Shown: piece after piece, positions 21,323-56,196 of the stretch
Layout: every line of letters starts with the position of its first letter
Numbering within the stretch: the first letter of the stretch is position 1
Assembly (NCBI RefSeq): GCF_003018235.1
Contig: NZ_CP027437.1
Origin: Escherichia coli
Lineage (GTDB): Bacteria; Pseudomonadota; Gammaproteobacteria; Enterobacterales; Enterobacteriaceae
DNA: 64,000 nucleotides
Strand: one strand, 5' to 3'
Notes under the pieces: generated by a model
Database searches by the model: none
Seen by the model: only the letters and a program-made list of their open reading frames with translations
Told to the model about the DNA's origin: nothing
Made by a program: the position numbers and the translations under genes

Positions 21323-22339
21323 ATGACTATACTTGTAACAGGCGGCGCTGGTTATATTGGTTCACATACCGTTCTACAATTAATTGAGGGCGGGTATGAT
21401 GTTGTTGTGCTTGATAACCTGAGTAATTCATCCCAAGAGTCACTACATCGCGTTGGGTCTTTGGTTTCGAAAAATATTCCATTCATTAAGGCTGATATCA
21501 ACGATAAACAAAAGCTTGAAGAAGTTTTTAAAAACTACGATATTGATGCAGTGATTCATTTTGCAGGTTTAAAATCTGTTGGTGAATCAGTAAAGAAACC
21601 ACTGGAATATTACATTAATAATGTCAGTGGAACCCTTACCCTGCTTGAAGTTATGAAGCAAGCAAATGTTTACAAATTCATTTTTAGTTCGTCTGCGACT
21701 GTTTATGGTAATCATTCTCCGGTTCCCAATCTGGAGGAATATCCTATTGGAAATGCTTCATGCCCCTATGGAACTACTAAAGTCATGCTGGAGCAGGTTT
21801 TATCAGACTATGCGAAGTCAGATGATAAATTAAAAATTATTGCTCTGCGTTATTTTAATCCTACAGGTGCGCATCCTAGTGGTCTTATTGGGGAGGACCC
21901 GAACGGCATTCCAAACAATCTTGTTCCTTATATTTCTCAGGTTGCTATTGGCAAATTAGAAAAACTGTCCGTTTATGGTGGCGATTATGAAACTATTGAT
22001 GGAACAGGAGTACGCGACTTTATCCATGTGGTAGATCTTGCCGCAGGCCATGTTAGTGCTTTAAGGTATATTGATAAATTACAAGGATATGACATTTTTA
22101 ATCTTGGTACTGGCACTGGTGTATCAGTTTTACAAGTAATCGATGCCTTTGAAAAAGCAAGTAATCAGAAAGTTAATTATGAAATTGTCGCCAGACGTGA
22201 GGGCGATATAGGATCTTCTTGGGCTGATGTATCTAAAGCAGAAAGGATTTTAGGCTGGAAATCCAAGTACAATATTGAAGATATGATGGTCCATACCTGG
22301 AATTGGCAAAAACAAAACCCTAATGGCTATGGAAGTTAG
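21323..22339 (+). CDS. gne: UDP-hexose / UDP-N-acetylhexosamine 4-epimerase (GalE/Gne family)
   Basis: 338 aa; Rossmann GGAGYIGSH and SDR catalytic region; first gene after galF. Confidence 0.8.
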   Translation: MTILVTGGAGYIGSHTVLQLIEGGYDVVVLDNLSNSSQESLHRVGSLVSKNIPFIKADINDKQKLEEVFKNYDIDAVIHFAGLKSVGESVKKPLEYYINNVSGTLTLLEVMKQANVYKFIFSSSATVYGNHSPVPNLEEYPIGNASCPYGTTKVMLEQVLSDYAKSDDKLKIIALRYFNPTGAHPSGLIGEDPNGIPNNLVPYISQVAIGKLEKLSVYGGDYETIDGTGVRDFIHVVDLAAGHVSALRYIDKLQGYDIFNLGTGTGVSVLQVIDAFEKASNQKVNYEIVARREGDIGSSWADVSKAERILGWKSKYNIEDMMVHTWNWQKQNPNGYGS

Positions 22340-22372
22340 TACCTATTGATTTAATATTATAATGGCGTATCA

Positions 22373-24589
22373 ATGAATTTATTTTTCATAGTCGATAAGT
22401 TGGATTGGGCATTCGGTAGAATAGCTCAAAATATAGCAACAGAATTAAGTAGCTTTAATGTAAAAATAGTTTGCACCGATGATTTTAAAACTGTGGCAGA
22501 CTTTGCTATGCACATGGATAAAAACGTAAAAGAAAAGAGTATATTACACTTCTTTTGGCGTGATTATCTTATGGAAGTGATGAACTTCACTCAGCGGAAT
22601 CCCCAATATAAAGAAATTTTGATCAGAAATATTATCACAACGCATATTCCTGATCATCTTTTTACTTATGATGATATCGCAAACTATGAGAGAAGAATTC
22701 CTCTTATGAATTTTGTGGATGGGTATTTTGTTACATCCGGAAAATTGAAAGAGCTATATTCTGAACTGTCTGATTTTCCGCCTCCTCATAGCGTTATCTA
22801 TGATAATCCAGAAATTCCTATGAGCGAGGTAAAAAGCTATGATAATCATGATAGAAAAAAAATCGTATGGATTGGCAATAGTAAATGGGGAGAATACCTC
22901 GGTTACCAAGATTATAAAGGCCTGAATACAATAGTTTTGCCGGCTCTAGATAAATTAAAAAAATCTGGATATACATTTGATTATATTGAGTTTGATAGTT
23001 CTAAAGGCAAGACCGATCGTGAGGTAATTCTTAAAACACTTTCTGATGCAGATATTCTACTGATCAGTTCGAAATGTGAAGGTACACCATTGCCACTTCT
23101 TGAAGCAATGGCAAACAGTTGTGCTGTTGTGTCGACAGATGTTGGTATAGCAAATGAAGTATTACCTGAAAAGCAGTTACAGTATATTGTGTCTCGGGAT
23201 GCAGAGGCATTTTATTATTCGTTGAAAGGTCTTCTTGACGATCAACGCGGTCTTGAAGAGTTACAAAGAATGAATTATATAGCGTATCGTCAGCAATTTG
23301 TAGATGATAGCCTTATAGGTGACAAATGGGCATTGTTCTTCAAAGATATGTGTTCAAAATCGCAAAATGAATTTAAGAATATATTCCTTCGCGAGCAGAA
23401 AATTCCATCATTTAAAGAACGATTGATATCAAAAGCTATTTATAATCTAAGCAGACTAGCTCTTCGTTTGAATTTGATGAATACGCTAAAACAATATAGC
23501 CTGCTACGAAAAATATATTATAAGGTTGCAGGAACAACTACAAATCAAGTTGATTATGATTTGTTGGATGAATTTTATAGTAATGCAATATCAGATAAAG
23601 AAGTATTAGCATTTTACTCTGCATATTGGTCTGGTGTTGCCACATCAACAGCTAGTTTCTTTAAAGATGATAGTATCCAATATCCATATTATTCATATGA
23701 GTTCCCACAGGTTTCTAATCATGTCTATCTAAACAGATTAGCAGAAAAACTTGCTGAATCTAAAACACTAAAAAGTGTGATCATGAGCGGTGGAACACAA
23801 TTACAAATGGAACTTGCCAAAAAAATTAAGGCATTAAGTCCGAAAATAAAAATATTTTTTGCATGGCATGGTTCACCTGCTCAGTGGGTTGACTCCTCGC
23901 AATATTCAACGTTTGATGGATGGTATGAACTTTACCGAGAGCGAATTGCTGATGGGGTCATCTCGTTTAAGCCTGAGCTAGATGAAATACTCAATGCTTA
24001 CGGTATTCGTGCATTCTCAGTATCGAATTATGCTGTATCAGGCTCCTCGTTTTCTAAAAAATTAGCTGCACCTGATTCTGCCAATTTCCGCGTAGGTTTG
24101 TTCGCTGCAATGTTCAGTTGGTATAAAAATCCATTTCCTCAATTACTAGCAATTGGTTCATTAAAAGGATGTGAGCTAGTTACAAACTTGCATCTTGAAC
24201 ATAATATGAAGTGGGTTACTTCAAATATCAAGCTTACGACATTATCAGAAAATTTAAATAATAAGCGGTTTATCGAACTGCTATCTCGTTTACATGTTAT
24301 ATGCTATGTAACGAATACGGAATGTTCGCCAATGATAGCGTTGGAATCTGCAAGTGTCGGAACTCCATGCATTGTGGGGCCAGCTGGAAACATATATAAA
24401 GGTTTTCCTGAGTTAGAATTGTATTTGGTTGAAAAAGAGGTTGATAATCCAACTGCAATCAGGAATCGGTTACAATTAGTTCGTGATAATTACGAGGAAA
24501 TTACAGTTTTGCTTAATGCATTTGTTTTGGAATACAATTCCCGGCTAGAATTAATTAAAGAAAAGATGTATAAAGAGTTGAAGCAATGA
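22373..24589 (+). CDS. Two-domain glycosyltransferase (two GT-B modules), candidate O-antigen chain-extending enzyme
   Basis: 738 aa; N-terminal module with GNSKW ... EGTPLPLLEAMA motif, C-terminal module with ECSPMIALESASVGTP; low GC. Confidence 0.65.
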   Translation: MNLFFIVDKLDWAFGRIAQNIATELSSFNVKIVCTDDFKTVADFAMHMDKNVKEKSILHFFWRDYLMEVMNFTQRNPQYKEILIRNIITTHIPDHLFTYDDIANYERRIPLMNFVDGYFVTSGKLKELYSELSDFPPPHSVIYDNPEIPMSEVKSYDNHDRKKIVWIGNSKWGEYLGYQDYKGLNTIVLPALDKLKKSGYTFDYIEFDSSKGKTDREVILKTLSDADILLISSKCEGTPLPLLEAMANSCAVVSTDVGIANEVLPEKQLQYIVSRDAEAFYYSLKGLLDDQRGLEELQRMNYIAYRQQFVDDSLIGDKWALFFKDMCSKSQNEFKNIFLREQKIPSFKERLISKAIYNLSRLALRLNLMNTLKQYSLLRKIYYKVAGTTTNQVDYDLLDEFYSNAISDKEVLAFYSAYWSGVATSTASFFKDDSIQYPYYSYEFPQVSNHVYLNRLAEKLAESKTLKSVIMSGGTQLQMELAKKIKALSPKIKIFFAWHGSPAQWVDSSQYSTFDGWYELYRERIADGVISFKPELDEILNAYGIRAFSVSNYAVSGSSFSKKLAAPDSANFRVGLFAAMFSWYKNPFPQLLAIGSLKGCELVTNLHLEHNMKWVTSNIKLTTLSENLNNKRFIELLSRLHVICYVTNTECSPMIALESASVGTPCIVGPAGNIYKGFPELELYLVEKEVDNPTAIRNRLQLVRDNYEEITVLLNAFVLEYNSRLELIKEKMYKELKQ

Positions 24590-25365
24590 AAGAATCACTA
24601 ACAGATATATATTTGTCAATAAAATCGTGGCATCTTTGGACCACATTAGGTTGGTTAGAGTTAAGACAGAGATATAAAAGATCCATTGTTGGACCATTTT
24701 GGATTACACTAAGTATGGCGGTCCTTATTATTGCCTTAGGGGTGATTTATGGAGAACTATTTAAACTAGAAGTTAAAGAATATCTTCCGATGCTTGCAAT
24801 TGGTTTGGTTTTCTGGAGCTTTATTAGTGGCGTTATAAATGAAGGATGTGTTACTTTCATATCGTCCAGCTCCTTTATAAGTCAATTGCCAACTAAAAAA
24901 TTCATATATATTATGCAAATGCTATGGCGAAATTTTATGATGCTTTGCCATAATATAATAATAGTGATTGGTGTGTTGATTATATTCAACGTTTTTTCGT
25001 TGAGGAATTTCCCTCTTTTTATACTTGGCTTTATGATCGTAGCTGTTAACTTGATCTGGATTGCAACTTTGTTCGCGATGATTTCTGTACGTTTTAGAGA
25101 TTTTCCGCAAATGGTCATGAGCTTTATGCAGGTTGTCTTTTACATAACTCCAATATTATTTTCTGGAACAATGCTGGCTAAATATAGTTTACTGCTGAAG
25201 TTAAATCCATTTGCTTGGTTTATTGAGATTATTCGATCGCCTTTAGTGGGCAAAATGCCAGAGCTATACTGCTATTATAATTCCATTATCTTTGCATGCG
25301 TAGGAACAATTATCTCTCTAATTACATTTGCAAAATGTAGAAACCGCATTGCATATTGGGTGTAA
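24586..25365 (+). CDS. wzm: O-antigen ABC transporter permease
   Basis: 259 aa, six predicted TM helices, ABC-2 type; start overlaps upstream stop. Confidence 0.85.
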   Translation: MKESLTDIYLSIKSWHLWTTLGWLELRQRYKRSIVGPFWITLSMAVLIIALGVIYGELFKLEVKEYLPMLAIGLVFWSFISGVINEGCVTFISSSSFISQLPTKKFIYIMQMLWRNFMMLCHNIIIVIGVLIIFNVFSLRNFPLFILGFMIVAVNLIWIATLFAMISVRFRDFPQMVMSFMQVVFYITPILFSGTMLAKYSLLLKLNPFAWFIEIIRSPLVGKMPELYCYYNSIIFACVGTIISLITFAKCRNRIAYWV

Positions 25366-25371
25366 ATTATT

Positions 25372-26124
25372 ATGTCTCATTTGATTGACTTGAAAGATGT
25401 GGGTGTTGAATTTCCCATTTACGACGCTAAAAGTAGATCGTTTAAATCGCAGGTGGCAAATTTAACCCGTGGTGTAATTTCTTCAAAAAAAGAAAGCAGC
25501 ACAGTTACGGTTAAATCATTGGACGGTTTGACGTTTAGTCTGAAAGAAGGTGATAAACTCGGACTTATTGGAAATAATGGTGCGGGAAAATCTACGCTAC
25601 TGAAACTCTTGGCTGGTATTTATGAACCAACATCCGGCACAATTAAACGAAAGGGTAAGATAGTTCCTCTGTTGGACATCGCTCTAGGGATGGATGATGA
25701 TTCCACAGGATACCAAAATATAAAGCTACGTGGTTTATTACTAGGTATGACGAATGCAGAAATCGAGTCCAAAATAGAAGAGATCGCTTGTTTTACTGAA
25801 CTAGGTGATTATCTGAATCTACCAATTCGTGTCTACTCTACCGGCATGCGCGTGAGATTAGCATTCGCAGTATCAACTTCAGTTGATCCAGATGTACTTC
25901 TACTCGACGAAATTATTGGTACTGGCGATGCTTCCTTCTTAAATAAAGCAAAGAAAAGATTCGAGGAATTGCAGGAGAGGGCAAAGGTAGTTGTGTTGTC
26001 TTCGCATGACAATAATGTCATTCTGAAAACTTGTAATAAAGTCCTGTGGTTAGAGGGCGGTAAACCAAAGATGATTGGAGATCCGGAAGAAGTACTAAAT
26101 AAATATATGGATAGTGTGATTTAA
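25372..26124 (+). CDS. wzt: O-antigen ABC transporter ATP-binding protein (short form, no C-terminal carbohydrate-binding module)
   Basis: 250 aa; Walker A GNNGAGKST, signature YSTGMRVRLAFA, Walker B VLLLDE; protein ends shortly after the NBD. Confidence 0.85.
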   Translation: MSHLIDLKDVGVEFPIYDAKSRSFKSQVANLTRGVISSKKESSTVTVKSLDGLTFSLKEGDKLGLIGNNGAGKSTLLKLLAGIYEPTSGTIKRKGKIVPLLDIALGMDDDSTGYQNIKLRGLLLGMTNAEIESKIEEIACFTELGDYLNLPIRVYSTGMRVRLAFAVSTSVDPDVLLLDEIIGTGDASFLNKAKKRFEELQERAKVVVLSSHDNNVILKTCNKVLWLEGGKPKMIGDPEEVLNKYMDSVI

Positions 26125-26140
26125 AAAACAGGTGGTATGA

Positions 26141-27220
26141 GTGAAAATTGATTATGTCATTACAGGCATGAATGTCGGAGGCGCGGAAATGCAGGTAGTA
26201 GAACTGCTTCTCGAGCTTAAACGGTGTGGGCATTCTGTTCGGTTAATTTCGCTTACACCACCAGTTGATTTGATCGATAGGCTAATTAGAAATAACATCC
26301 CTGTTGTTTCATTGGGGATGAAGTCCAAATTAGGTTTACCATTTGCTGCATTTAAATTAGCCAGGTTGATGAGACAGAATTCTCCAGATATTGTGCATTC
26401 GCATATGTTTCATGCCAATATCCTAGTACGTCTTGTAAGAATATTTTTGGTGGATAGTACATCTATTATTTGTACTGCGCACAGCATTCGTGAAGGTGGC
26501 AGTGCTAGAGACTGGCTTTATCGTTTGACTAATAAATTAAGTGACTTGAATACAGTCGTAAGCGATGCGGCACGGCTGCGGTTTATTAACGACAAAGTAT
26601 TTCCATCAGAGAAAACACTTACTGTTTATAATTGTATCAATATTGATCATTTTCGTATCATTGATAGACAAAGCAGGAAACGATTTCGCTGGGTAACCGT
26701 TGGGCGGCTTGTAAAAGTAAAAAATCAACTTTTGATTTTGCAAGCGATGATGAAGTTGCCACTTAGTGAACTCATCATAATTGGAGAAGGCGAGGAACGA
26801 CTCTCATTACAAACATTTATCGATCAAAATTCTCTAAGCGAGCGAGTTACTCTCTTGGGTAAAAAAGATAATGTTGTTGATTATTATCATGATTCTGATG
26901 CTTTTGTGCTGGCCTCAGACTATGAAGGATTTGCACTTGTCGTGGCCGAAGCTATGGCATGCGGATTGCCAGTTGTCGCAACAAACTGTGGTGGGCCTGC
27001 TGAAATTATTGGAAATGGACAGGATTTTGGCATAACAATTTCGGTTAATGATGTACATCACTTAACCGCTGCGATGCAACAAATTGAATCATTAGATGTT
27101 GAACAGCGTAGAGGAAGTGGCTATCGTGCTCGGAAAAGAGTCATTGAGAAATTTTCTACTAAAAAAATCGTATCTCAATGGGAAGATATCTACCTGCGCA
27201 TACAGAAAAACAGAATTTAG
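26141..27220 (+). CDS. Glycosyltransferase, GT4 family
   Basis: 359 aa; GTG start with aggtgg RBS; GT-B motif region DYEGFALVVAEAMACGLPVVAT. Confidence 0.75.
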   Translation: MKIDYVITGMNVGGAEMQVVELLLELKRCGHSVRLISLTPPVDLIDRLIRNNIPVVSLGMKSKLGLPFAAFKLARLMRQNSPDIVHSHMFHANILVRLVRIFLVDSTSIICTAHSIREGGSARDWLYRLTNKLSDLNTVVSDAARLRFINDKVFPSEKTLTVYNCINIDHFRIIDRQSRKRFRWVTVGRLVKVKNQLLILQAMMKLPLSELIIIGEGEERLSLQTFIDQNSLSERVTLLGKKDNVVDYYHDSDAFVLASDYEGFALVVAEAMACGLPVVATNCGGPAEIIGNGQDFGITISVNDVHHLTAAMQQIESLDVEQRRGSGYRARKRVIEKFSTKKIVSQWEDIYLRIQKNRI

Positions 27221-27229
27221 AATTCACCT

Positions 27230-28384
27230 ATGAAAATAGCATTAATCGGTACTACAGCAGAAAGTCTAATCCAATTCAGAAAAGAACTGATTAATTTATT
27301 ACATAAAAATGGCCATGTTGTGTATGCGTTTGCAATTGATTATGATGATGTAACAAAAGAAAAAGTTAAATCATTTGGTGCTATACCAGTACATTACTGT
27401 TTCAGTCGAACAGGGCTAAATCCATTTTCTGATATTATCAATACCTATAAATTATATAAGATTCTAAAATCACTTAAGTTGGACTTGGTATTTTCATATT
27501 TTTCAAAGCCAGCCATTTTTGGTACTTTAGCAGCAAAATTTGCAAGAATACAGAAGCGTTATGCGATGCTTGAAGGGCTTGGTTTTTTCTTTACCAATTC
27601 TGGAGGGCAGGTTTCATTAAGGAATAAATTACTAAAGAAAATATTAGTATCACTTTACAAATTAAGTTTCAGACATATTGAAAGTCTTATCTTGCTTAAT
27701 GCGGATGATAAGCGAGACCTTTTAGTTAATGCAAAAATTCAAGTCAAAAAGGTTCATATATTAGGGGGGATTGGATTAAATATGTCTGATTACCCCTACT
27801 GCCCACCGCCTGTTGATCCAGTGTCTTTCATTTTTGTCGCTAGATTTTTACAAGAAAAGGGAGTTTATGAATTTATTGAGGCTGCACAAGTAGTCAAAAA
27901 GAAATTTCCTGAAACTCATTTTTGCATGCTGGGTCATCTGGATCTCCATAATCCGGGGAGCTTAACTACAGAGCGGCTTAATGATTTGAAGTGTAATAAC
28001 ATCATTGAGTTACCTGGCCACGTTGATAACGTGCAGGAGTGGCTTGCTAAAGCGAGTGTATTTGTATTGCCTTCCTGGCGTGAAGGGTTTCCGAGGAGTA
28101 CACAGGAGGCGATGGCAATGGGACGTGCTGTCATAACCAGCGATGTGCCAGGCTGCCGAGATACAGTAGTTGATGGTGTTAATGGATTTTTGATTAAGCC
28201 ACGTTCTTCTCATGCGTTAGCGGAAAAAATGCTCTGTTTTTTACATCAACCTGAGCTAATTACCCAAATGGGGAATGCAAGTCACCAAATAGCTTTACAA
28301 CAATTTGACTCATATATAGTTAATTCAAAACTTATGAAAATACTGCGCGTAGATGATGAAAATACAAAGTCTAATGACTGTTAA
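27230..28384 (+). CDS. Glycosyltransferase, GT4 family
   Basis: 384 aa; GT-B motif region SWREGFPRSTQEAMAMGRAVITSD. Confidence 0.75.
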   Translation: MKIALIGTTAESLIQFRKELINLLHKNGHVVYAFAIDYDDVTKEKVKSFGAIPVHYCFSRTGLNPFSDIINTYKLYKILKSLKLDLVFSYFSKPAIFGTLAAKFARIQKRYAMLEGLGFFFTNSGGQVSLRNKLLKKILVSLYKLSFRHIESLILLNADDKRDLLVNAKIQVKKVHILGGIGLNMSDYPYCPPPVDPVSFIFVARFLQEKGVYEFIEAAQVVKKKFPETHFCMLGHLDLHNPGSLTTERLNDLKCNNIIELPGHVDNVQEWLAKASVFVLPSWREGFPRSTQEAMAMGRAVITSDVPGCRDTVVDGVNGFLIKPRSSHALAEKMLCFLHQPELITQMGNASHQIALQQFDSYIVNSKLMKILRVDDENTKSNDC

Positions 28385-28432
28385 ATCATACAAATAAAAC
28401 GTTATAATAAATACAATTTGGTGGGGAATATT

Positions 28433-29581
28433 ATGGAAAGATTAAATTTGAGTGAAAAACCTGCTCACTCTTTACAAGAAGCGGCTATTCATTGTGCCAG
28501 ATATGCTAATATCTTACATCTTGTTAAAGATAAAGTAGTTCTCGACATTGCCTGCGGCGAAGGATATGGCTCAGCACTATTAATGAAAGCTGGTGCTAAA
28601 CGAGTTGTGGGGGTGGACATCTCTCAAGAGTCAATTGAGCACGCAAAGAAACTTTTTGGGGGATATAATGTTGAGTTTATTGTAAGTGATGCATGTACCA
28701 TCTCAGAGCGTTATGGTGAAGATTTTTTTGATATGGTTGTTTCAATAGAGACAATAGAACACATCAATACTCCTGAAGTTTTTCTTAGTGCTATCAAAAA
28801 AACTGCTAAAGAAAATGCGATTTTCTATATAACTTGCCCTAATGATTATTGGTATTATCCAAATGATGAACAATCCAATCCGTACCATGTACGAAAATAT
28901 ACTTTTCAAGAGTTCACCGAACTTAGTACAGTGATTTTGGGAAAGAATGTTCAATGGGCATATGGTTGTTCTGCTTTTGGATTTTGTACAGTCTCAGCAA
29001 ATAATCGAGGTTTTGAAAAAATAGGTTCTTCATGGATGGAAATAAGCGATTCGGAAAATTCAATTACTGTTTTAAATACAGATATTGACGCAGTTAGTGA
29101 AAATAATTGCAGTTTTTTTGTGGGCTTATGGAATGCACCTGAAACAAATTTTAGCAATAGTACATTCCCAATAAGTATGAATGCTTATTCGCGCATGACA
29201 GAAGAGTTCGAGTCGAATGTAAGTCTGGTACTTCGTGAGGAACAGGCAGAAAATAAAAAAGCTATATCAATATTAAAACAAGATATGAAAAAGTTAACAA
29301 TGGACCTGAGAAAATCAAACCTTTTATTATTCGCATTAAAAATCGAAAATGATGCATTGCGTACTAATATTTCCGAATTGCAACAACAGCTTGCCAGGAA
29401 AATTGCGATGTATGATGAAGTAACAAATACAAATAATAATTTAGTAACTACAAATTCATCATTGATGGAAAGAGTGTCACAGATGGAAATTCCATATTAT
29501 CGATACGTAAGGCTATCCGCCCTTCTTCCGGATTTTTTGAAAAAAATGATACTTAAAATTATGCGTTTGATCAGGAAATAA
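28433..29581 (+). CDS. SAM-dependent methyltransferase with C-terminal coiled coil and amphipathic helix (WbdD-like chain terminator candidate)
   Basis: Class I MTase motif VLDIACGEGYGS; heptad-like region around residues 270-350; basic amphipathic C-terminus LPDFLKKMILKIMRLIRK; ATG 28433 with ggtgggg RBS. Confidence 0.7.
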   Translation: MERLNLSEKPAHSLQEAAIHCARYANILHLVKDKVVLDIACGEGYGSALLMKAGAKRVVGVDISQESIEHAKKLFGGYNVEFIVSDACTISERYGEDFFDMVVSIETIEHINTPEVFLSAIKKTAKENAIFYITCPNDYWYYPNDEQSNPYHVRKYTFQEFTELSTVILGKNVQWAYGCSAFGFCTVSANNRGFEKIGSSWMEISDSENSITVLNTDIDAVSENNCSFFVGLWNAPETNFSNSTFPISMNAYSRMTEEFESNVSLVLREEQAENKKAISILKQDMKKLTMDLRKSNLLLFALKIENDALRTNISELQQQLARKIAMYDEVTNTNNNLVTTNSSLMERVSQMEIPYYRYVRLSALLPDFLKKMILKIMRLIRK

Positions 29582-29583
29582 AA

Positions 29584-31665
29584 ATGTCGGCACGTTTAAA
29601 ATTATTACCAGGGGTAAAATCAACTGAATATGTGTATTCAGACCTTCATGCTTTGCTCGATTCTAATGCTGAAAGCTCGTTTGGTCCGAACATTGGTAGT
29701 GATGGTTCTAACCTAACAATAACATGTTTATCGATGAGTAGAGTTTTTCTTACTGAAAAACTTGTTAATTCTATATATCAGCATATACCTAATTTCAAAG
29801 GTGATATCCTGATTGTTGATAACGGCAGTACATTAGAAGAACTTTCAGTTTTACAAACTTTAAGTGATAGGATTCCATTACATATTAGGGTTATCGAACT
29901 TGGTAATAATTTTGGCGTAAGTGGCGGAAGAAATAAAGCGTTAGAGCATATAAAAACAGAATGGGCTATGTTTCTTGATAATGATATTTATTTTATAAAC
30001 AACCCGTTCCCGAGATTGCAAAAGGATATTTCAAAACTTGGCTGTCATTTCATCAATATGCCATTGCTTGATTCTGATGGAGAAACATTATTCGCAAATG
30101 GAGGGAATATTTTCCTCCATATTGATAATGATTCGGTGCATGTTGGTGCAGGAAGTGCATGCGTCCAGGAAAAAATAACTACATATGATGGTGAGGGCTT
30201 CCTTTCTACATTTCTCTTTGGCGGTGCGAGTGTTATTAAAATTGACTCTCTGAAAAGTTTAGGGAAGTACGATGAAAATATGTTCATTGGATTTGAGGAT
30301 ATTGATTTATCGCTTCGTCTTTACCAGTCAGGAATGAAAGTAGGTACATGTGGTGCAATATCTTTAATCCATGATCACCCCAAACCTAGTTCTAATAAAG
30401 ATAAGGATTATGAGAAAATTCGCTTCACGAAAAGTATATTAAAAGAGTCTGCGGATTATCTTGAAAATAAATGGGGAATGGTTTTCTGGTCAGCTCCAGT
30501 TGATGATTGGTTGGAAGAGAAGCAACGTAGTTTTGAACTGATAACTCAAAAAGAAAGTAACTATTCGCAAATTGATGATAATAAACAAAATGTCATTTGT
30601 GATTTTCCAGTAGCAAAACCGAGAATTGCATTGATTATTGATACTGAAAACTGGGCATTCTCAAATATAGCAAATCAAATAGTCAATCATCTGTCAGATT
30701 CGTATGATTTTACAATAATACCAACTGAAATCATTGATAATATCAGTCAGGTTATTATGATGACCAAAAATCATGATATAACTCATTTCTTCTGGCGTGA
30801 ATCGCTTAGACTTATATATGATGAATGCTATATAAACTATAACCGGGCTATTGGATTTGATGAGCTTAGTTTTAAAAAACAATACTTAGATGGAAGGATA
30901 ATAACAAGTAGTGTTTATGATCATCTATTTCTTGATGAACAAGCTATAAAGTTAAGAAAAACATTTTATAATGATTTAATAACTGCTTATACAGTTAGTT
31001 CATCAAAATTATATGATATATACTCATCAATAGCCGAGTATCCTAATCCGTCAGTTCTTGCTGAAGATGGTGTCGATTTAAAACTATTTTATCCTCTCGA
31101 TCTTGAACGCTTTGACAATATTGAGTCGAGAACATTGCGCGTAGGTTGGGCTGGTAATTCTAAATGGGCGGGAGAAGTAGAGGATTTTAAAGGTTACCAT
31201 TCTTTATTAAAGCCAGCAGTTGAGCAATTACAATCAGAAGGATTGAATATAGAGTTAGTCCTTGCTGATCGTCAGCTCGGATTTATTCCTCATGATGAAA
31301 TGGTAAATTATTATAGCCAAATTGATGTCTATGTCTGTCCTTCAAAAATTGAGGGCACACCAAACCCTGTACTCGAATCTATGGCATGTGGCGTTCCCGT
31401 GATAAGTACTGATGTCGGTGTGGTTAATGATGCGTTTGGTGATATGCAAAAAGAATGGATTTTGCCAGTTAGAAGCAAGGATGTTTTGATAGATAAACTT
31501 CGGGATTTTTATAATAGGCGTAACACAGTGGTAAAATGTTTATCTTCAGAAAATCTGCAGCAAATAAAAAAATGGGATTGGAAAGTTAAATCTGAGAACT
31601 TCCGCATTTTTTTCGACAAATTATTAGAATCTAAAAAGCACAGCAAGATAAACACTGAAATGTGA
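29584..31665 (+). CDS. Two-domain glycosyltransferase (N-terminal GT2, C-terminal GT-B module)
   Basis: 693 aa; GT2 signature DILIVDNGST ... FLDNDIYF; C-terminal module with GNSKW ... EGTPNPVLESMACGVPVISTD, paralogous to the N-terminal module of the 738 aa protein. Confidence 0.7.
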   Translation: MSARLKLLPGVKSTEYVYSDLHALLDSNAESSFGPNIGSDGSNLTITCLSMSRVFLTEKLVNSIYQHIPNFKGDILIVDNGSTLEELSVLQTLSDRIPLHIRVIELGNNFGVSGGRNKALEHIKTEWAMFLDNDIYFINNPFPRLQKDISKLGCHFINMPLLDSDGETLFANGGNIFLHIDNDSVHVGAGSACVQEKITTYDGEGFLSTFLFGGASVIKIDSLKSLGKYDENMFIGFEDIDLSLRLYQSGMKVGTCGAISLIHDHPKPSSNKDKDYEKIRFTKSILKESADYLENKWGMVFWSAPVDDWLEEKQRSFELITQKESNYSQIDDNKQNVICDFPVAKPRIALIIDTENWAFSNIANQIVNHLSDSYDFTIIPTEIIDNISQVIMMTKNHDITHFFWRESLRLIYDECYINYNRAIGFDELSFKKQYLDGRIITSSVYDHLFLDEQAIKLRKTFYNDLITAYTVSSSKLYDIYSSIAEYPNPSVLAEDGVDLKLFYPLDLERFDNIESRTLRVGWAGNSKWAGEVEDFKGYHSLLKPAVEQLQSEGLNIELVLADRQLGFIPHDEMVNYYSQIDVYVCPSKIEGTPNPVLESMACGVPVISTDVGVVNDAFGDMQKEWILPVRSKDVLIDKLRDFYNRRNTVVKCLSSENLQQIKKWDWKVKSENFRIFFDKLLESKKHSKINTEM

Positions 31666-31754
31666 TCAAAATATCATTTTAACCTTAACACAGGTTTTTT
31701 ATCATTATCGTGAGTTAATAAGATCGTAGTATCTACACCTGACAGGAGTATGTA

Positions 31755-33161
31755 ATGTCTAAGCAACAGATCGGCGTCATCGGTATGGCAGTAATGGGGC
31801 GCAACTTGGCGCTCAATATTGAAAGCCGTGGTTATACCGTTTCCGTATTCAACCGCTCCCGTGAAAAGACCGAAGAAGTCATTGCTGAGAATCCGGATAA
31901 GAAACTGGTTCCTTATTATACGGTAAAGGAGTTTGTTGAATCACTTGAAACTCCTCGTCGTATCCTGTTAATGGTGAAGGCGGGCGCGGGTACAGATGCT
32001 GTCATTGATTCACTTAAGCCGTATCTGGAAAAAGGTGACATCATCATTGATGGCGGTAATACTTTCTTCCAAGATACTATTCGCCGTAACCGGGAACTAT
32101 CTGCCGAAGGTTTTAATTTCATCGGCACCGGTGTGTCCGGTGGTGAAGAAGGGGCGTTGAAAGGCCCATCTATTATGCCTGGAGGTCAGAAAGAAGCGTA
32201 CGAGTTAGTTGCTCCAATATTGACTAAAATCGCGGCCATTGCTGAAGATGGCGAACCGTGCGTAACTTATATCGGCGCTGATGGTGCAGGCCATTACGTG
32301 AAAATGGTCCACAACGGCATTGAGTACGGCGATATGCAGTTGATTGCTGAAGCCTATTCTCTGCTAAAAGGTGGTCTTAACCTGTCAAACGAAGAGCTGG
32401 CAGACACTTTTACCAAGTGGAATGAAGGTGAGCTCAGCAGTTACCTGATCGACATTACCAAAGACATTTTCACCCAAAAAGATGAAGAGGGTAAATTCCT
32501 GATCGATGTGATCTTGGATGAAGCGGCTAACAAAGGCACTGGTAAATGGACCAGTCAGAGTTCTCTGGACTTGGGCGAACCGCTATCTCTGATTACCGAA
32601 TCTGTATTCGCTCGGTATATCTCCTCCCTGAAAGACCAACGCGTAGCAGCTTCTAAGGTCTTGACCGGACCTAAAGCTCAGCTTGCAGGTGACAAAGTAG
32701 AGTTTATTGAGAAAGTACGTCGTGCATTATATCTGGGGAAAATTGTGTCTTATGCACAAGGATTCTCACAATTGCGTGCTGCATCTGATGAATATAAGTG
32801 GGATCTGCAATACGGTGAGATCGCGAAGATTTTCCGTGCTGGCTGTATCATTCGTGCACAGTTCTTGCAGAAAATCACTGATGCTTATGCTAACAATGAT
32901 AAAATCGAGAACCTGCTCCTGGATCCCTACTTCAAGAATATTGCTGATGAATACCAGCAAGCTCTGCGTGATGTGGTAACCTATGCGGTACAAAATGGTA
33001 TTCCTGTACCGACGTTTGGCGCAGCTGTCGCTTATTATGACAGCTACCGTGCAGCGGTACTACCGGCGAACCTAATACAGGCGCAGCGCGATTATTTTGG
33101 TGCACATACCTATAAGCGTACTGATAAAGAAGGCGTATTCCATACGGAATGGTTGAATTGA
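31755..33161 (+). CDS. gnd: 6-phosphogluconate dehydrogenase (decarboxylating)
   Basis: 468 aa; [12 protein letters not shown]ossmann motif; higher GC than flanks. Confidence 0.97.
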
Positions 33162-33194
33162 ATAATAAATTTTCATATTGTCTATTTTAATAAC

Positions 33195-33225
33195 AAGGCC
33201 ATCTTACAGGGTGGCCTTATTGTCA
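33195..33225 (+). terminator. Possible gnd terminator hairpin
   Basis: Inverted repeat aaggccatcttacagggtggcctt just after the gnd stop. Confidence 0.4.
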
Positions 33226-52990: not shown

Positions 52991-53134
52991 CAAACCAATC
53001 ATTCATACCAAGAGGCCGGGCTTCGTACCGGATAGATATTTACTAAAAATCGACAGTTGTTGTCGCTGAGGAATCCAAAAAAATGGGGCAATTTTTTGCT
53101 TACGCGACGGTTATCACCGTAAAGGAGAATGACC

Positions 53135-54493
53135 ATGTCGCATAACGTTACTCCAAACACCTCTCGCGTGGAATTGCGTAAAACGCTTACGTTAGTTCCG
53201 GTTGTAATGATGGGTCTAGCCTATATGCAGCCGATGACGCTGTTTGATACTTTTGGTATCGTTTCAGGCCTCACGGATGGTCATGTGCCGACAGCCTATG
53301 CGTTCGCATTGATTGCGATCCTGTTTACGGCTCTGAGCTACGGGAAGCTGGTTCGCCGCTATCCTTCTGCTGGCTCTGCATACACTTACGCCCAGAAATC
53401 CATTAGCCCGACTGTCGGCTTTATGGTGGGTTGGTCTTCTCTGCTCGACTATCTGTTCGCGCCGATGATCAACATTCTGCTGGCGAAAATCTATTTTGAA
53501 GCTCTGGTGCCTTCCATCCCATCGTGGATGTTTGTGGTGGCGCTGGTGGCCTTTATGACCGCCTTTAACCTGCGTAGTCTGAAATCCGTAGCGAACTTCA
53601 ACACTGTAATCGTCGTGTTGCAGGTAGTGCTGATCGCGGTGATTCTGGGCATGGTTGTTTATGGCGTATTTGAAGGTGAAGGCGCGGGTACGCTGGCGAG
53701 CACTCGTCCGTTCTGGTCTGGCGATGCGCATGTTATCCCGATGATTACCGGGGCGACAATCCTGTGCTTCTCCTTTACCGGCTTTGACGGCATCAGCAAC
53801 CTGTCGGAAGAAACCAAAGATGCAGAGCGCGTGATCCCGCGTGCGATTTTCCTGACCGCGCTGATTGGCGGCATGATCTTCATCTTTGCAACTTACTTCC
53901 TCCAACTGTATTTCCCGGATATCTCTCGCTTTAAAGATCCGGATGCGTCACAGCCTGAAATCATGCTGTACGTTGCGGGTAAAGCGTTCCAGGTTGGCGC
54001 GCTGATCTTCTCCACCATTACCGTACTGGCGTCCGGTATGGCGGCGCACGCAGGCGTAGCGCGTCTGATGTACGTAATGGGTCGTGACGGCGTGTTCCCG
54101 AAAAGCTTCTTCGGTTATGTACACCCGAAATGGCGTACTCCGGCGATGAACATCATCCTGGTTGGCGCGATTGCCCTGCTGGCAATCAACTTCGACCTGG
54201 TAATGGCAACGGCGCTGATTAACTTTGGTGCGCTGGTGGCGTTCACCTTTGTTAACCTGTCGGTCATCTCGCAGTTCTGGATCCGTGAGAAGCGTAACAA
54301 GACGCTGAAAGATCACTTCCAGTATCTGTTCCTGCCGATGTGTGGTGCGCTGACCGTTGGTGCGCTGTGGGTTAACCTGGAAGAAAGCTCAATGGTTCTG
54401 GGTCTGATCTGGGCTGCTATCGGTCTGATTTACCTGGCTTGCGTAACCAAGAGCTTCCGTAACCCGGTTCCGCAGTACGAAGACGTTGCATAA
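53135..54493 (+). CDS. plaP: Putrescine importer (APC family)
   Basis: About 452 aa, twelve TM helices, APC-family amino acid/polyamine permease. Confidence 0.85.
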
Positions 54494-54530
54494 TCTTACA
54501 AGCCGGATGACATAATCATCCGGTAAATCT

Positions 54531-54565
54531 CAAAAAGCCGGAGTTTATCGCTCCGGTTTTTTTGT
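54531..54565. terminator. Bidirectional terminator hairpin between plaP and sbcB
   Basis: aaaaagccggagtttatcgctccggttttttt: stem flanked by A-run and T-run. Confidence 0.7.
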
Positions 54566-54566
54566 T

Positions 54567-55994
54567 TCAGACGATCTCTTCCGCGTACTGCCAAAGCGCT
54601 TTTAACAGCGCCACTTTCTCTTTGTCATCGGCATATTGTTGTGCCAGCATCTGCAATTCATCTGCATAACCCTGCAATAACTCTGGCGTGAAGACCTGGC
54701 GGCGGTGCTCCAGCCAGCGTTGCTGCTCGGCATAATCCAGCGTCCCCGGGAAGTTGCGCGCCCGATAATTGAACAACAGCTTTTCAATTCGTTTATCAAC
54801 AAAAGTGATATCCAGTGCCGGTAAATTACGCGGCTCGGTTTCAAGCACAATTTTCATTGCTGCACGATCGGCGTCACTGAAAAAGCCATTATAAAGCTGT
54901 GCATCCACGTTATCTGAAGGCGTAAACGGTTCGGCTTCCGCGAATATCGCCACCACTTTTTCACGCACTTGCGGATTTTCACGCAGAATTTTCAGGTTAT
55001 CGAGGCAATGCTGACGATTAATTCCCAGTCGGTCGGCATCTTCCGGGCGTAGCGTATTCGCCTGGGCCAGCACCGGACATTTATTGATATGTACCAGCTT
55101 AACCGGAACGGCGGCGTTATCGCCAAGATCGGTTTTTGCGGTATATAAACGCTCGCGCAATGTGTCGCTATCCAGTTCCAGTAATGGCGAAATGTCTCCT
55201 GCCAAATCCACCATAATTACGGCATTGCGATTTTCAGGATGCCACGCCAGCGGTGCCACCCAGCTGGTGTTGCCGCGCCATGCCCCAAACATTCCGGAAA
55301 CGTGCACCAGGGGTTTCATCAGCGGAACATCAATCAACGCCATCAGTTTGTGTTTATTACGATGGGTAAAGAGATAATCAAACAGGCGTGGCTGACGCGT
55401 TTTTACCAGTTTCGCCATCGCAATAGTGGCGTACACATCAGCCATCGCATCGTGGGCGTTGCTATGTTCAATACCATTCGCTTTGGTTAAATGCTCAAGG
55501 CGAAAGCTCGGTAGACCGTCATCATTTTCAGGCCAGTTTATTCCTTCCGGGCGCAGGGCATAACAGGCACGCATAACATCCAGTAAATCCCAGCGCGAGT
55601 TATCATGCTGCCAGCTCCAGGCGTAAGGATCGTAGAAATTACGATAAAAAACGTTGCGTGTGACTTCGTCGTCGAAACGCACATTGTTGTAGCCCAGAAT
55701 ACAGGTCTTCGGTACGGTAAAAAGCGAGTGAATACGGGCGGCAAATGCGGCTTCGTTTTCTCCTTTCGCCCGAGCTTCCTGCGGGGTAATACCGGTAATT
55801 AATACTGCTCCAGGCTGGGGTAAATAGTCATCCGCGGGCTTGCAGTAAAAGACTTCGGGTTCGCCGATGACATTGAATTCGCTATCGGTGCGAATGGCTG
55901 CGAACTGTGCAGGGCGATCTAACGCGGGGTGCGTGCCAAAGGTTTCGTAATCGTGAAACAAAAAGGTAGATTGTTGCTTACCGTCATTCATCAT
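54567..55994 (-). CDS. sbcB: Exodeoxyribonuclease I
   Basis: 475 aa from MMNDGKQQSTFLFHDYETFG (DEDDh exonuclease motif). Confidence 0.95.
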   Translation of the reverse strand: MMNDGKQQSTFLFHDYETFGTHPALDRPAQFAAIRTDSEFNVIGEPEVFYCKPADDYLPQPGAVLITGITPQEARAKGENEAAFAARIHSLFTVPKTCILGYNNVRFDDEVTRNVFYRNFYDPYAWSWQHDNSRWDLLDVMRACYALRPEGINWPENDDGLPSFRLEHLTKANGIEHSNAHDAMADVYATIAMAKLVKTRQPRLFDYLFTHRNKHKLMALIDVPLMKPLVHVSGMFGAWRGNTSWVAPLAWHPENRNAVIMVDLAGDISPLLELDSDTLRERLYTAKTDLGDNAAVPVKLVHINKCPVLAQANTLRPEDADRLGINRQHCLDNLKILRENPQVREKVVAIFAEAEPFTPSDNVDAQLYNGFFSDADRAAMKIVLETEPRNLPALDITFVDKRIEKLLFNYRARNFPGTLDYAEQQRWLEHRRQVFTPELLQGYADELQMLAQQYADDKEKVALLKALWQYAEEIV

Positions 55995-56196
55995 TAGGTT
56001 AAATCCGTTATTTCTGCTGTCTGCCAGAGTATCAAATATCACCGTGCTAATCAGCTTTAGCGCAACAATTTGACAGCGAGTGGCAACAGATCATGTCAGA
56101 TAAAAATGCGAGGGTAGTCACATTTTCTTGCACTTTATTCCAGCCAGTTCATAAGTATTTCCGTAAAAAGAACAGCTATTTGAAACTCCTGAGGGT

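Follow-up and report, generated by a model that had tools for sequence, protein, structure and literature searches.

A plaP-sbcB junction without tsuAB in Escherichia coli: a shared predicted terminator and the probable repeated loss of an old thiosulfate-uptake cassette

In the 64-kb stretch of E. coli DNA analysed here (the window), the genes plaP and sbcB face each other across a spacer of 73 bp. The former (also named yeeF; 53135-54493, + strand) encodes a putrescine:H+ symporter of 452 aa and ends with a TAA stop codon at 54491-54493; the latter (54567-55994, - strand) encodes exodeoxyribonuclease I of 475 aa and ends with a TGA (TCA on the + strand) at 54567-54569. The mechanical open reading frame (ORF) of plaP starts two codons further upstream, at 53129, and that of sbcB reaches a GTG at 56042. 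SbcB was called by the NCBIfam profile NF008746 at 811 bits (cut-off 260), and its neighbours DacD, SbmC, YefM, YoeB, and TmaR were called by profile as well. For PlaP no NCBIfam equivalog scored above its cut-off, and matches to APC-family transporters were seen; its identity and extent are taken from the ORF list, from its place in a left-flank alignment to K-12 that is 98.6% identical, and from the RefSeq annotation of matching records. The spacer (54494-54566), delimited by the two ORF ends and by the K-12 alignment, represents the short allele of this junction, i.e. the allele without tsuAB. An earlier note on this DNA had described plaP and sbcB as directly convergent and about 70 bp apart, and the distance measured from the ORF ends agrees with that description. 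Two hairpins are predicted in the spacer (-31.6 kcal/mol for both together; z = -7.7 against shuffled sequences); an Rfam scan of 54200-54900 on both strands at E <= 1 gave no match.

Hairpin 1 (54502-54524, + strand), GCCGGATGA-CATAA-TCATCCGGT, consists of a 9-bp stem without a T-run and folds at -14.4 kcal/mol (z = -6.3). It is kept in the short alleles of E. coli and E. whittamii and is missing from K-12 and from most other genera among the loci compared; judged by these alignments, the predicted structure is confined to the short allele of Escherichia. Its 23-mer is found in one copy at up to three mismatches, a count that refers to the 64-kb window and not to the genome. The stem ends resemble the half-sites of REP (repetitive extragenic palindrome) elements, a dispersed repeat family with a palindrome of the GCCGGATG...CATCCGGC type. 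Possibly, although this is a guess, hairpin 1 acts as a 3'-end stabiliser of the plaP mRNA.

Hairpin 2 (54532-54563) is a predicted intrinsic terminator, recognised by its fold, by a terminator scan, and by its conservation: a GCCGGAG/CTCCGG stem preceded by A5 and followed by T7. On the + strand it reads GCCGGAG-TTTATCG-CTCCGG and then T7 (-17.2 kcal/mol; z = -5.7), and on the - strand it folds at -11.6 kcal/mol (z = -3.7). The scan calls the - strand reading (CCGGAGCGATAAACTCCGG followed by CTTTTTGAGA), while the + strand reading is not called by this simple scan despite its strong fold. A G+C-rich stem-loop with a U-tract is present on the plaP (+) transcript and on the sbcB (-) transcript alike, and the bidirectional terminator that had been proposed earlier for this spacer is in structural accord with the predicted folds of both strands and with the scan of the - strand. 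From the symmetry of A-tract, stem, and T-tract, hairpin 2 is a plausible predicted bidirectional terminator; in the short haplotype it is the sole terminator-like element between plaP and sbcB, and it probably serves both genes. In 73 of 74 Enterobacteriaceae loci, whichever allele they carry, plaP is followed by a perfect hairpin and a T-run, and a homologous hairpin is present in K-12. Across the 74 loci its core is nearly always CCGGAG/CTCCGG, and the stem variants ACGGAG/CTCCGT, GCGGAGG/CCTCCGC, and GCCAGC/GCTGGC retain pairing.

Further features of the window lie on either side of this locus. A long O-antigen region (21323-39668) contains genes either side of a 468-aa ORF (31755-33161), which we took to be gnd by its size and position; two of the glycosyltransferases encoded there are very large (738 and 693 aa), further glycosyltransferase and oxidoreductase genes lie between this ORF and ugd, and the layout of the region is reminiscent of ABC-transporter-dependent O-antigen clusters. 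Between ugd (39991-41157) and hisI lies an IS3-family element (41245-42639) with an HTH transposase ORF (41245-41748) and an rve integrase-core ORF (42004-42639); no ORF of the size of wzzB, the usual E. coli occupant of this interval, was seen between ugd and hisI in the window. On the other side, the end of a pdu (propanediol utilisation) operon (59820-63627, - strand; a PduV/EutP-family ORF and its neighbours) adjoins tmaR. E. coli NY1601 likewise has the pdu end beside tmaR, whereas in K-12 this position is held by the CP4-44 prophage.

In K-12 MG1655 the order is sbcB (b2011), tsuB/yeeD (b2012), tsuA/yeeE (b2013), and plaP (b2014), so that the placement of yeeE-yeeD between plaP and sbcB, which the earlier note had given, is right. 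An alignment of the window with K-12, run by BLAST on the b2011-b2014 region, yields two collinear blocks of 98.6% (left) and 98.2% identity. Homology ends at window position 54495 and resumes at 54569, i.e. the breakpoints lie at the stop codons of plaP and sbcB, with ca. 1,520 bp between the two genes in K-12 versus 73 bp in the window. The absence of yeeE/yeeD from the junction, also claimed earlier, extends to the surroundings: tblastn of K-12 TsuA and TsuB against the whole 64-kb window found no homologue (best E-values 0.31 and 0.24, respectively). K-12 TsuA matches PF04143 (Sulf_transp, the YeeE/YedE family) and TsuB matches PF01206 (the TusA family of sulfurtransferases, marked by the CPxP motif); homologues of both are missing from the window. 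When remnants of tsuAB or of its promoter were sought in the 73-bp spacer by local alignment, only the terminator stem and the T-run matched K-12. A marked peak of divergence beside the junction, as expected for old haplotypes, was looked for as well; there is only a weak rise between window and K-12 (at the 3' end of sbcB, 7 mismatches in 200 bp), which we consider uninformative.

The two states of the junction were counted in the complete E. coli genomes of RefSeq, of which 5,424 out of 5,426 carry the locus. A 1.3-kb probe found the direct junction as a contiguous match in 1,214 of the 5,424 genomes (ca. 22%), and the K-12 tsuAB segment is present in 4,209. Since these counts sum to 5,423 of 5,424, the two states are mutually exclusive and the genomes with the short junction have no K-12-like tsuAB elsewhere. 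The presence/absence polymorphism in a conserved context that had been surmised from the window is thereby borne out: both states occur in E. coli, they exclude each other, and their flanks are about 98% identical. With a 181-bp probe the spacer proved to be uninterrupted in 782 of the 1,214 direct-junction genomes; in the remaining ca. 430 the junction is interrupted by some 0.7 kb of inserted DNA, which is IS200C where inspected, namely in one genome, ST131 strain 4433 (L083 860-1580). There the element sits between the T-run of the terminator (...CTTTTTTGTT) and the sbcB stop (TCA), corresponding to window 54566/54567, and this insertion point is the very point that holds tsuAB in other strains. 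In the window the site is empty and consists of the three bases between T-run and sbcB stop (54564-54566), as located from the position of the inserts in other genomes; elsewhere it is filled by the tsuAB cassette or by IS200C, and the E. coli matches to the junction probe end at 54566. An IS621 in one matching genome was considered as a junction insert and dismissed, being located in yeeA. E. coli HH45 (L087 2677-3529) carries a long allele whose internal deletion has reduced tsuA to 111 bp and tsuB to 177 bp, a separate event of partial cassette loss.

Every tested segment of the window is 98-99% identical to the best of the 5,426 complete RefSeq E. coli genomes, and public draft contigs carry the identical SbcB beside the same junction; the two that were compared (one being GCA_053516455.1) are 99.99-100% identical to the window over 7.4 kb. 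The lineage of the window seems not to be represented among the complete genomes. The polymorphism itself is common and already recorded, and the allele of the window is an ordinary one. Strains without yeeD/yeeE at this locus were reported in sequencing of the O157 region (Iguchi et al. 2011, PMC3158064): three O157 strains, two of phylogroup B2 and one of phylogroup A. The phylogroup A strain, an O157:H16, shares its O157 cluster type with the B2 strains, which was explained there by transferred fragments no shorter than 34 kb (PMC3158064). Our own association of the short allele with phylogroup B2 is based on ST131 among the matches listed, together with the strains of Iguchi et al. (2011).

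For a wider view, species-representative genomes were scanned for SbcB; 80 Enterobacteriaceae loci were listed, a set that leaves out E. coli, E. fergusonii, E. albertii, E. marmotae, and Salmonella, and their alleles were classed by tblastn and by spacer measurement. A direct plaP-sbcB junction of 50-163 bp is found in 46 of the 80 listed loci, including those of E. whittamii, most of the Citrobacter freundii complex, Enterobacter, Lelliottia, Phytobacter, and most Kosakonia. The tsuAB genes are present in 19 of the 80, from about eight genera, among them C. amalonaticus, C. youngae, Kluyvera, Pseudocitrobacter, Superficieibacter, Huaxiibacter, one Kosakonia, and one Trabulsiella. A third allele with ca. 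2.8-3.0 kb of other DNA occurs in eight loci of the Klebsiella/Raoultella group (L029, L032, L033, L058, L062, L068, L071, and L073); the sole one inspected (L029 8530-11228) holds the gene for an EF-G paralogue of 700 aa, complete in its five EF-G domains, and an ORF of 145 aa without a Pfam match. In all 19 long-allele loci and in K-12 the cassette lies between the T-run of the plaP terminator and the sbcB stop, and it comprises a conserved regulatory region (TAATAACC…TTAGAG…TTTGGTTATTGG), tsuA, tsuB, and a G+C-rich hairpin of its own. The one further Escherichia species whose junction could be read is E. whittamii; it shares the two-hairpin spacer of the window with few substitutions, while its flanks are only ca. 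92.5% identical to the window. In Salmonella LT2 sbcB probably adjoins yeeF.

Two side observations were made in this sample. An IS256-like element abuts the sbcB 3' end in one Escherichia lineage, Escherichia sp. MOD1-EC7003 (L003 8474-8757), whose sbcB and dacD are ca. 95% identical to those of the window: a different hairpin lies within about 100 bp after the sbcB stop, followed by the C-terminus of a transposase, within which the contig ends. We take this transposase to be IS256-family-like, judging its translation by eye. The PlaP proteins (L004-L082) fall into two classes by their identity to that of the window, 96-100% aa (87-89% DNA) or 85-90% aa (80-84% DNA); these classes cross genus lines, both occurring in Citrobacter, Enterobacter, and Kluyvera, and are independent of tsuAB. 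The comparison suggests two old plaP allele classes or an old exchange; a recent transfer behind the 96-100% class was discarded, plaP DNA identity there being only 87-89%.

Several comparisons bear on the age of the cassette. In 20 long-allele taxa the pairwise DNA distances of tsuA and sbcB are correlated (Pearson r = 0.90) and have nearly the same means (0.203 and 0.205), which indicates that the cassette co-diverged with its neighbours and did not spread recently; in no pair does the ratio of the tsuA to the sbcB distance fall below 0.6, and there is therefore no sign of a recent cassette transfer. K-12 tsuA has 72-79.5% DNA identity to the other sampled cassettes, in line with the flanking genes. 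On a neighbour-joining tree of sbcB from 75 taxa, 47 of them short, at least 10 changes of state are needed, and the root comes out as short under unordered parsimony; E. coli, the C. freundii complex, Trabulsiella, and Kosakonia each contain both states. One Trabulsiella gives a split TsuA match, which suggests a disrupted gene and, taken together with the partial deletion in HH45, points to loss in progress. Between the short and long alleles of E. coli, the stretch from the plaP stop to the terminator and the terminator loop are unalignable although the flanks are ca. 98% identical, and this excludes that the short allele arose from a K-12-like one by simple deletion in recent times; one of the two E. 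coli haplotypes could have been imported by recombination through the conserved flanks.

The explanation that we hold with considerable confidence is that the window carries a tsuAB-less short haplotype, in which an old cassette has been lost in one of many repeated events, leaving a terminator that probably serves both genes. These comparisons suggest that the cassette probably is old at its site and was lost repeatedly: it would have been at the junction since ancient times in the Enterobacteriaceae and have disappeared time and again by deletion. The short haplotype of E. coli would itself be old rather than a fresh deletion, as it is common to E. whittamii. It would also be able to move between lineages by homologous recombination of large fragments, the junction lying about 10 kb from the O-antigen/his recombination hotspot.

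The direction of change could also have been the reverse, with the short junction ancestral in Escherichia, and perhaps in the family, and tsuAB acquired by the K-12-like lineage (phylogroups A, B1, E, and others) from another enterobacterial carrier of the cassette at the same site, through homologous recombination. We regard such a gain as unlikely, if far from absurd. The short state of E. whittamii and the short root obtained by parsimony speak for it, and so do the unalignable E. coli spacers, which are what a segment swap through conserved flanks is expected to leave, and the documented recombination hotspot in this region (PMC3158064). Yet no close donor is in sight, K-12 tsuA being at most 79.5% identical in DNA to the sampled cassettes and no closer to them than its flanks are; the distances of cassette and sbcB are equal and correlated across genera; and the flank divergence between window and K-12 has no marked peak at the junction.

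That tsuAB was relocated within the source genome instead of being lost is very improbable: only 64 kb of that genome are in view, which leaves room for the genes elsewhere, but the window has no TsuA or TsuB homologue and the 1,214 short and 4,209 tsuAB-bearing genomes nearly exhaust the 5,424 of E. coli. The circumstances under which the earlier note would have had to be given up, namely a different order in K-12 or a tsuAB encoded close by, were not encountered. More improbable still is an assembly artefact or a collapsed region, as the same junction is found in 782 complete genomes and in E. whittamii, and as independent public contigs are 99.99-100% identical to the window. Old age and repeated loss of the cassette remain our preferred reading.

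As to the consequences for the cell, TsuA/TsuB is an alternative thiosulfate importer, and ΔyeeE causes a growth defect on thiosulfate only in a ΔcysPUWA background (PMC11073785). By extension from that study, the strain of the window is predicted to be without the TsuA/TsuB route for thiosulfate and would depend on Sbp/CysP-CysUWA. The absence of tsuAB should be nearly neutral under most conditions; the mild effect is expected because CysPUWA also imports thiosulfate.

Beyond the known polymorphism, this analysis adds three elements: a left boundary fixed at a family-wide terminator, IS200C at the same point, and cross-genus evidence for an old cassette. In practice, tsuAB is not to be counted as part of the E. 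coli core, and the TsuAB thiosulfate route should be removed from metabolic models of lineages with the short allele, ST131 among them. The junction also offers a PCR-sized marker with four states (73 bp; plus 0.7 kb of IS200C; plus 1.5 kb of tsuAB; and partial deletions), and its pattern across genera provides a small and clean case in which a redundant transporter was probably lost time and again from a fixed, terminator-bounded site. A bolder reading, which we put forward as speculative and more doubtful than not, takes the bases from the terminator to the sbcB stop as a hotspot at which small cargo is gained and lost throughout the family, with the hairpin guiding IS200-type insertion or promoting deletion, and with the absence of tsuAB marking lineages of different sulfur nutrition, e.g. 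B2 ExPEC. The contents seen there are none at all, tsuAB, an EF-G paralogue with a small ORF (Klebsiella/Raoultella group), and the ca. 0.7-kb insert (IS200C where inspected).

Compared with the reference loci, K-12 has the same flanking order as the window, with yefM-yoeB, yeeZ, yeeY, and plaP on one side and sbcB, dacD, sbmC, yeeA, and tmaR on the other, and it shares the CCGGAG/CTCCGG stem and T7 of the terminator after plaP. It differs in having in addition the tsuA regulatory region, tsuA, tsuB, and a second hairpin, in lacking hairpin 1, and in the terminator loop and the sequence ahead of the terminator: right after plaP, the K-12 terminator is AAACCGGAG-(16-nt loop)-CTCCGGTTTTTTTATT, versus AAAAAGCCGGAG-(7-nt loop)-CTCCGGTTTTTTTGTT in the window. 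The short alleles of ST131 and NY1601 have the same direct plaP-sbcB junction as the window, the latter with five substitutions in the 73 bp, and the window is free of the IS200C that many short-allele genomes bear at the site. Bidirectional intrinsic terminators between convergent genes are an established general class, and like them hairpin 2 has a G+C-rich stem set between an A-tract and a T-tract and is located between convergent stop codons. This predicted terminator departs from that class in that its - strand U-tract is shorter (CUUUUUGA), and also in that long alleles retain its A-tract, with no convergent gene opposite it there.
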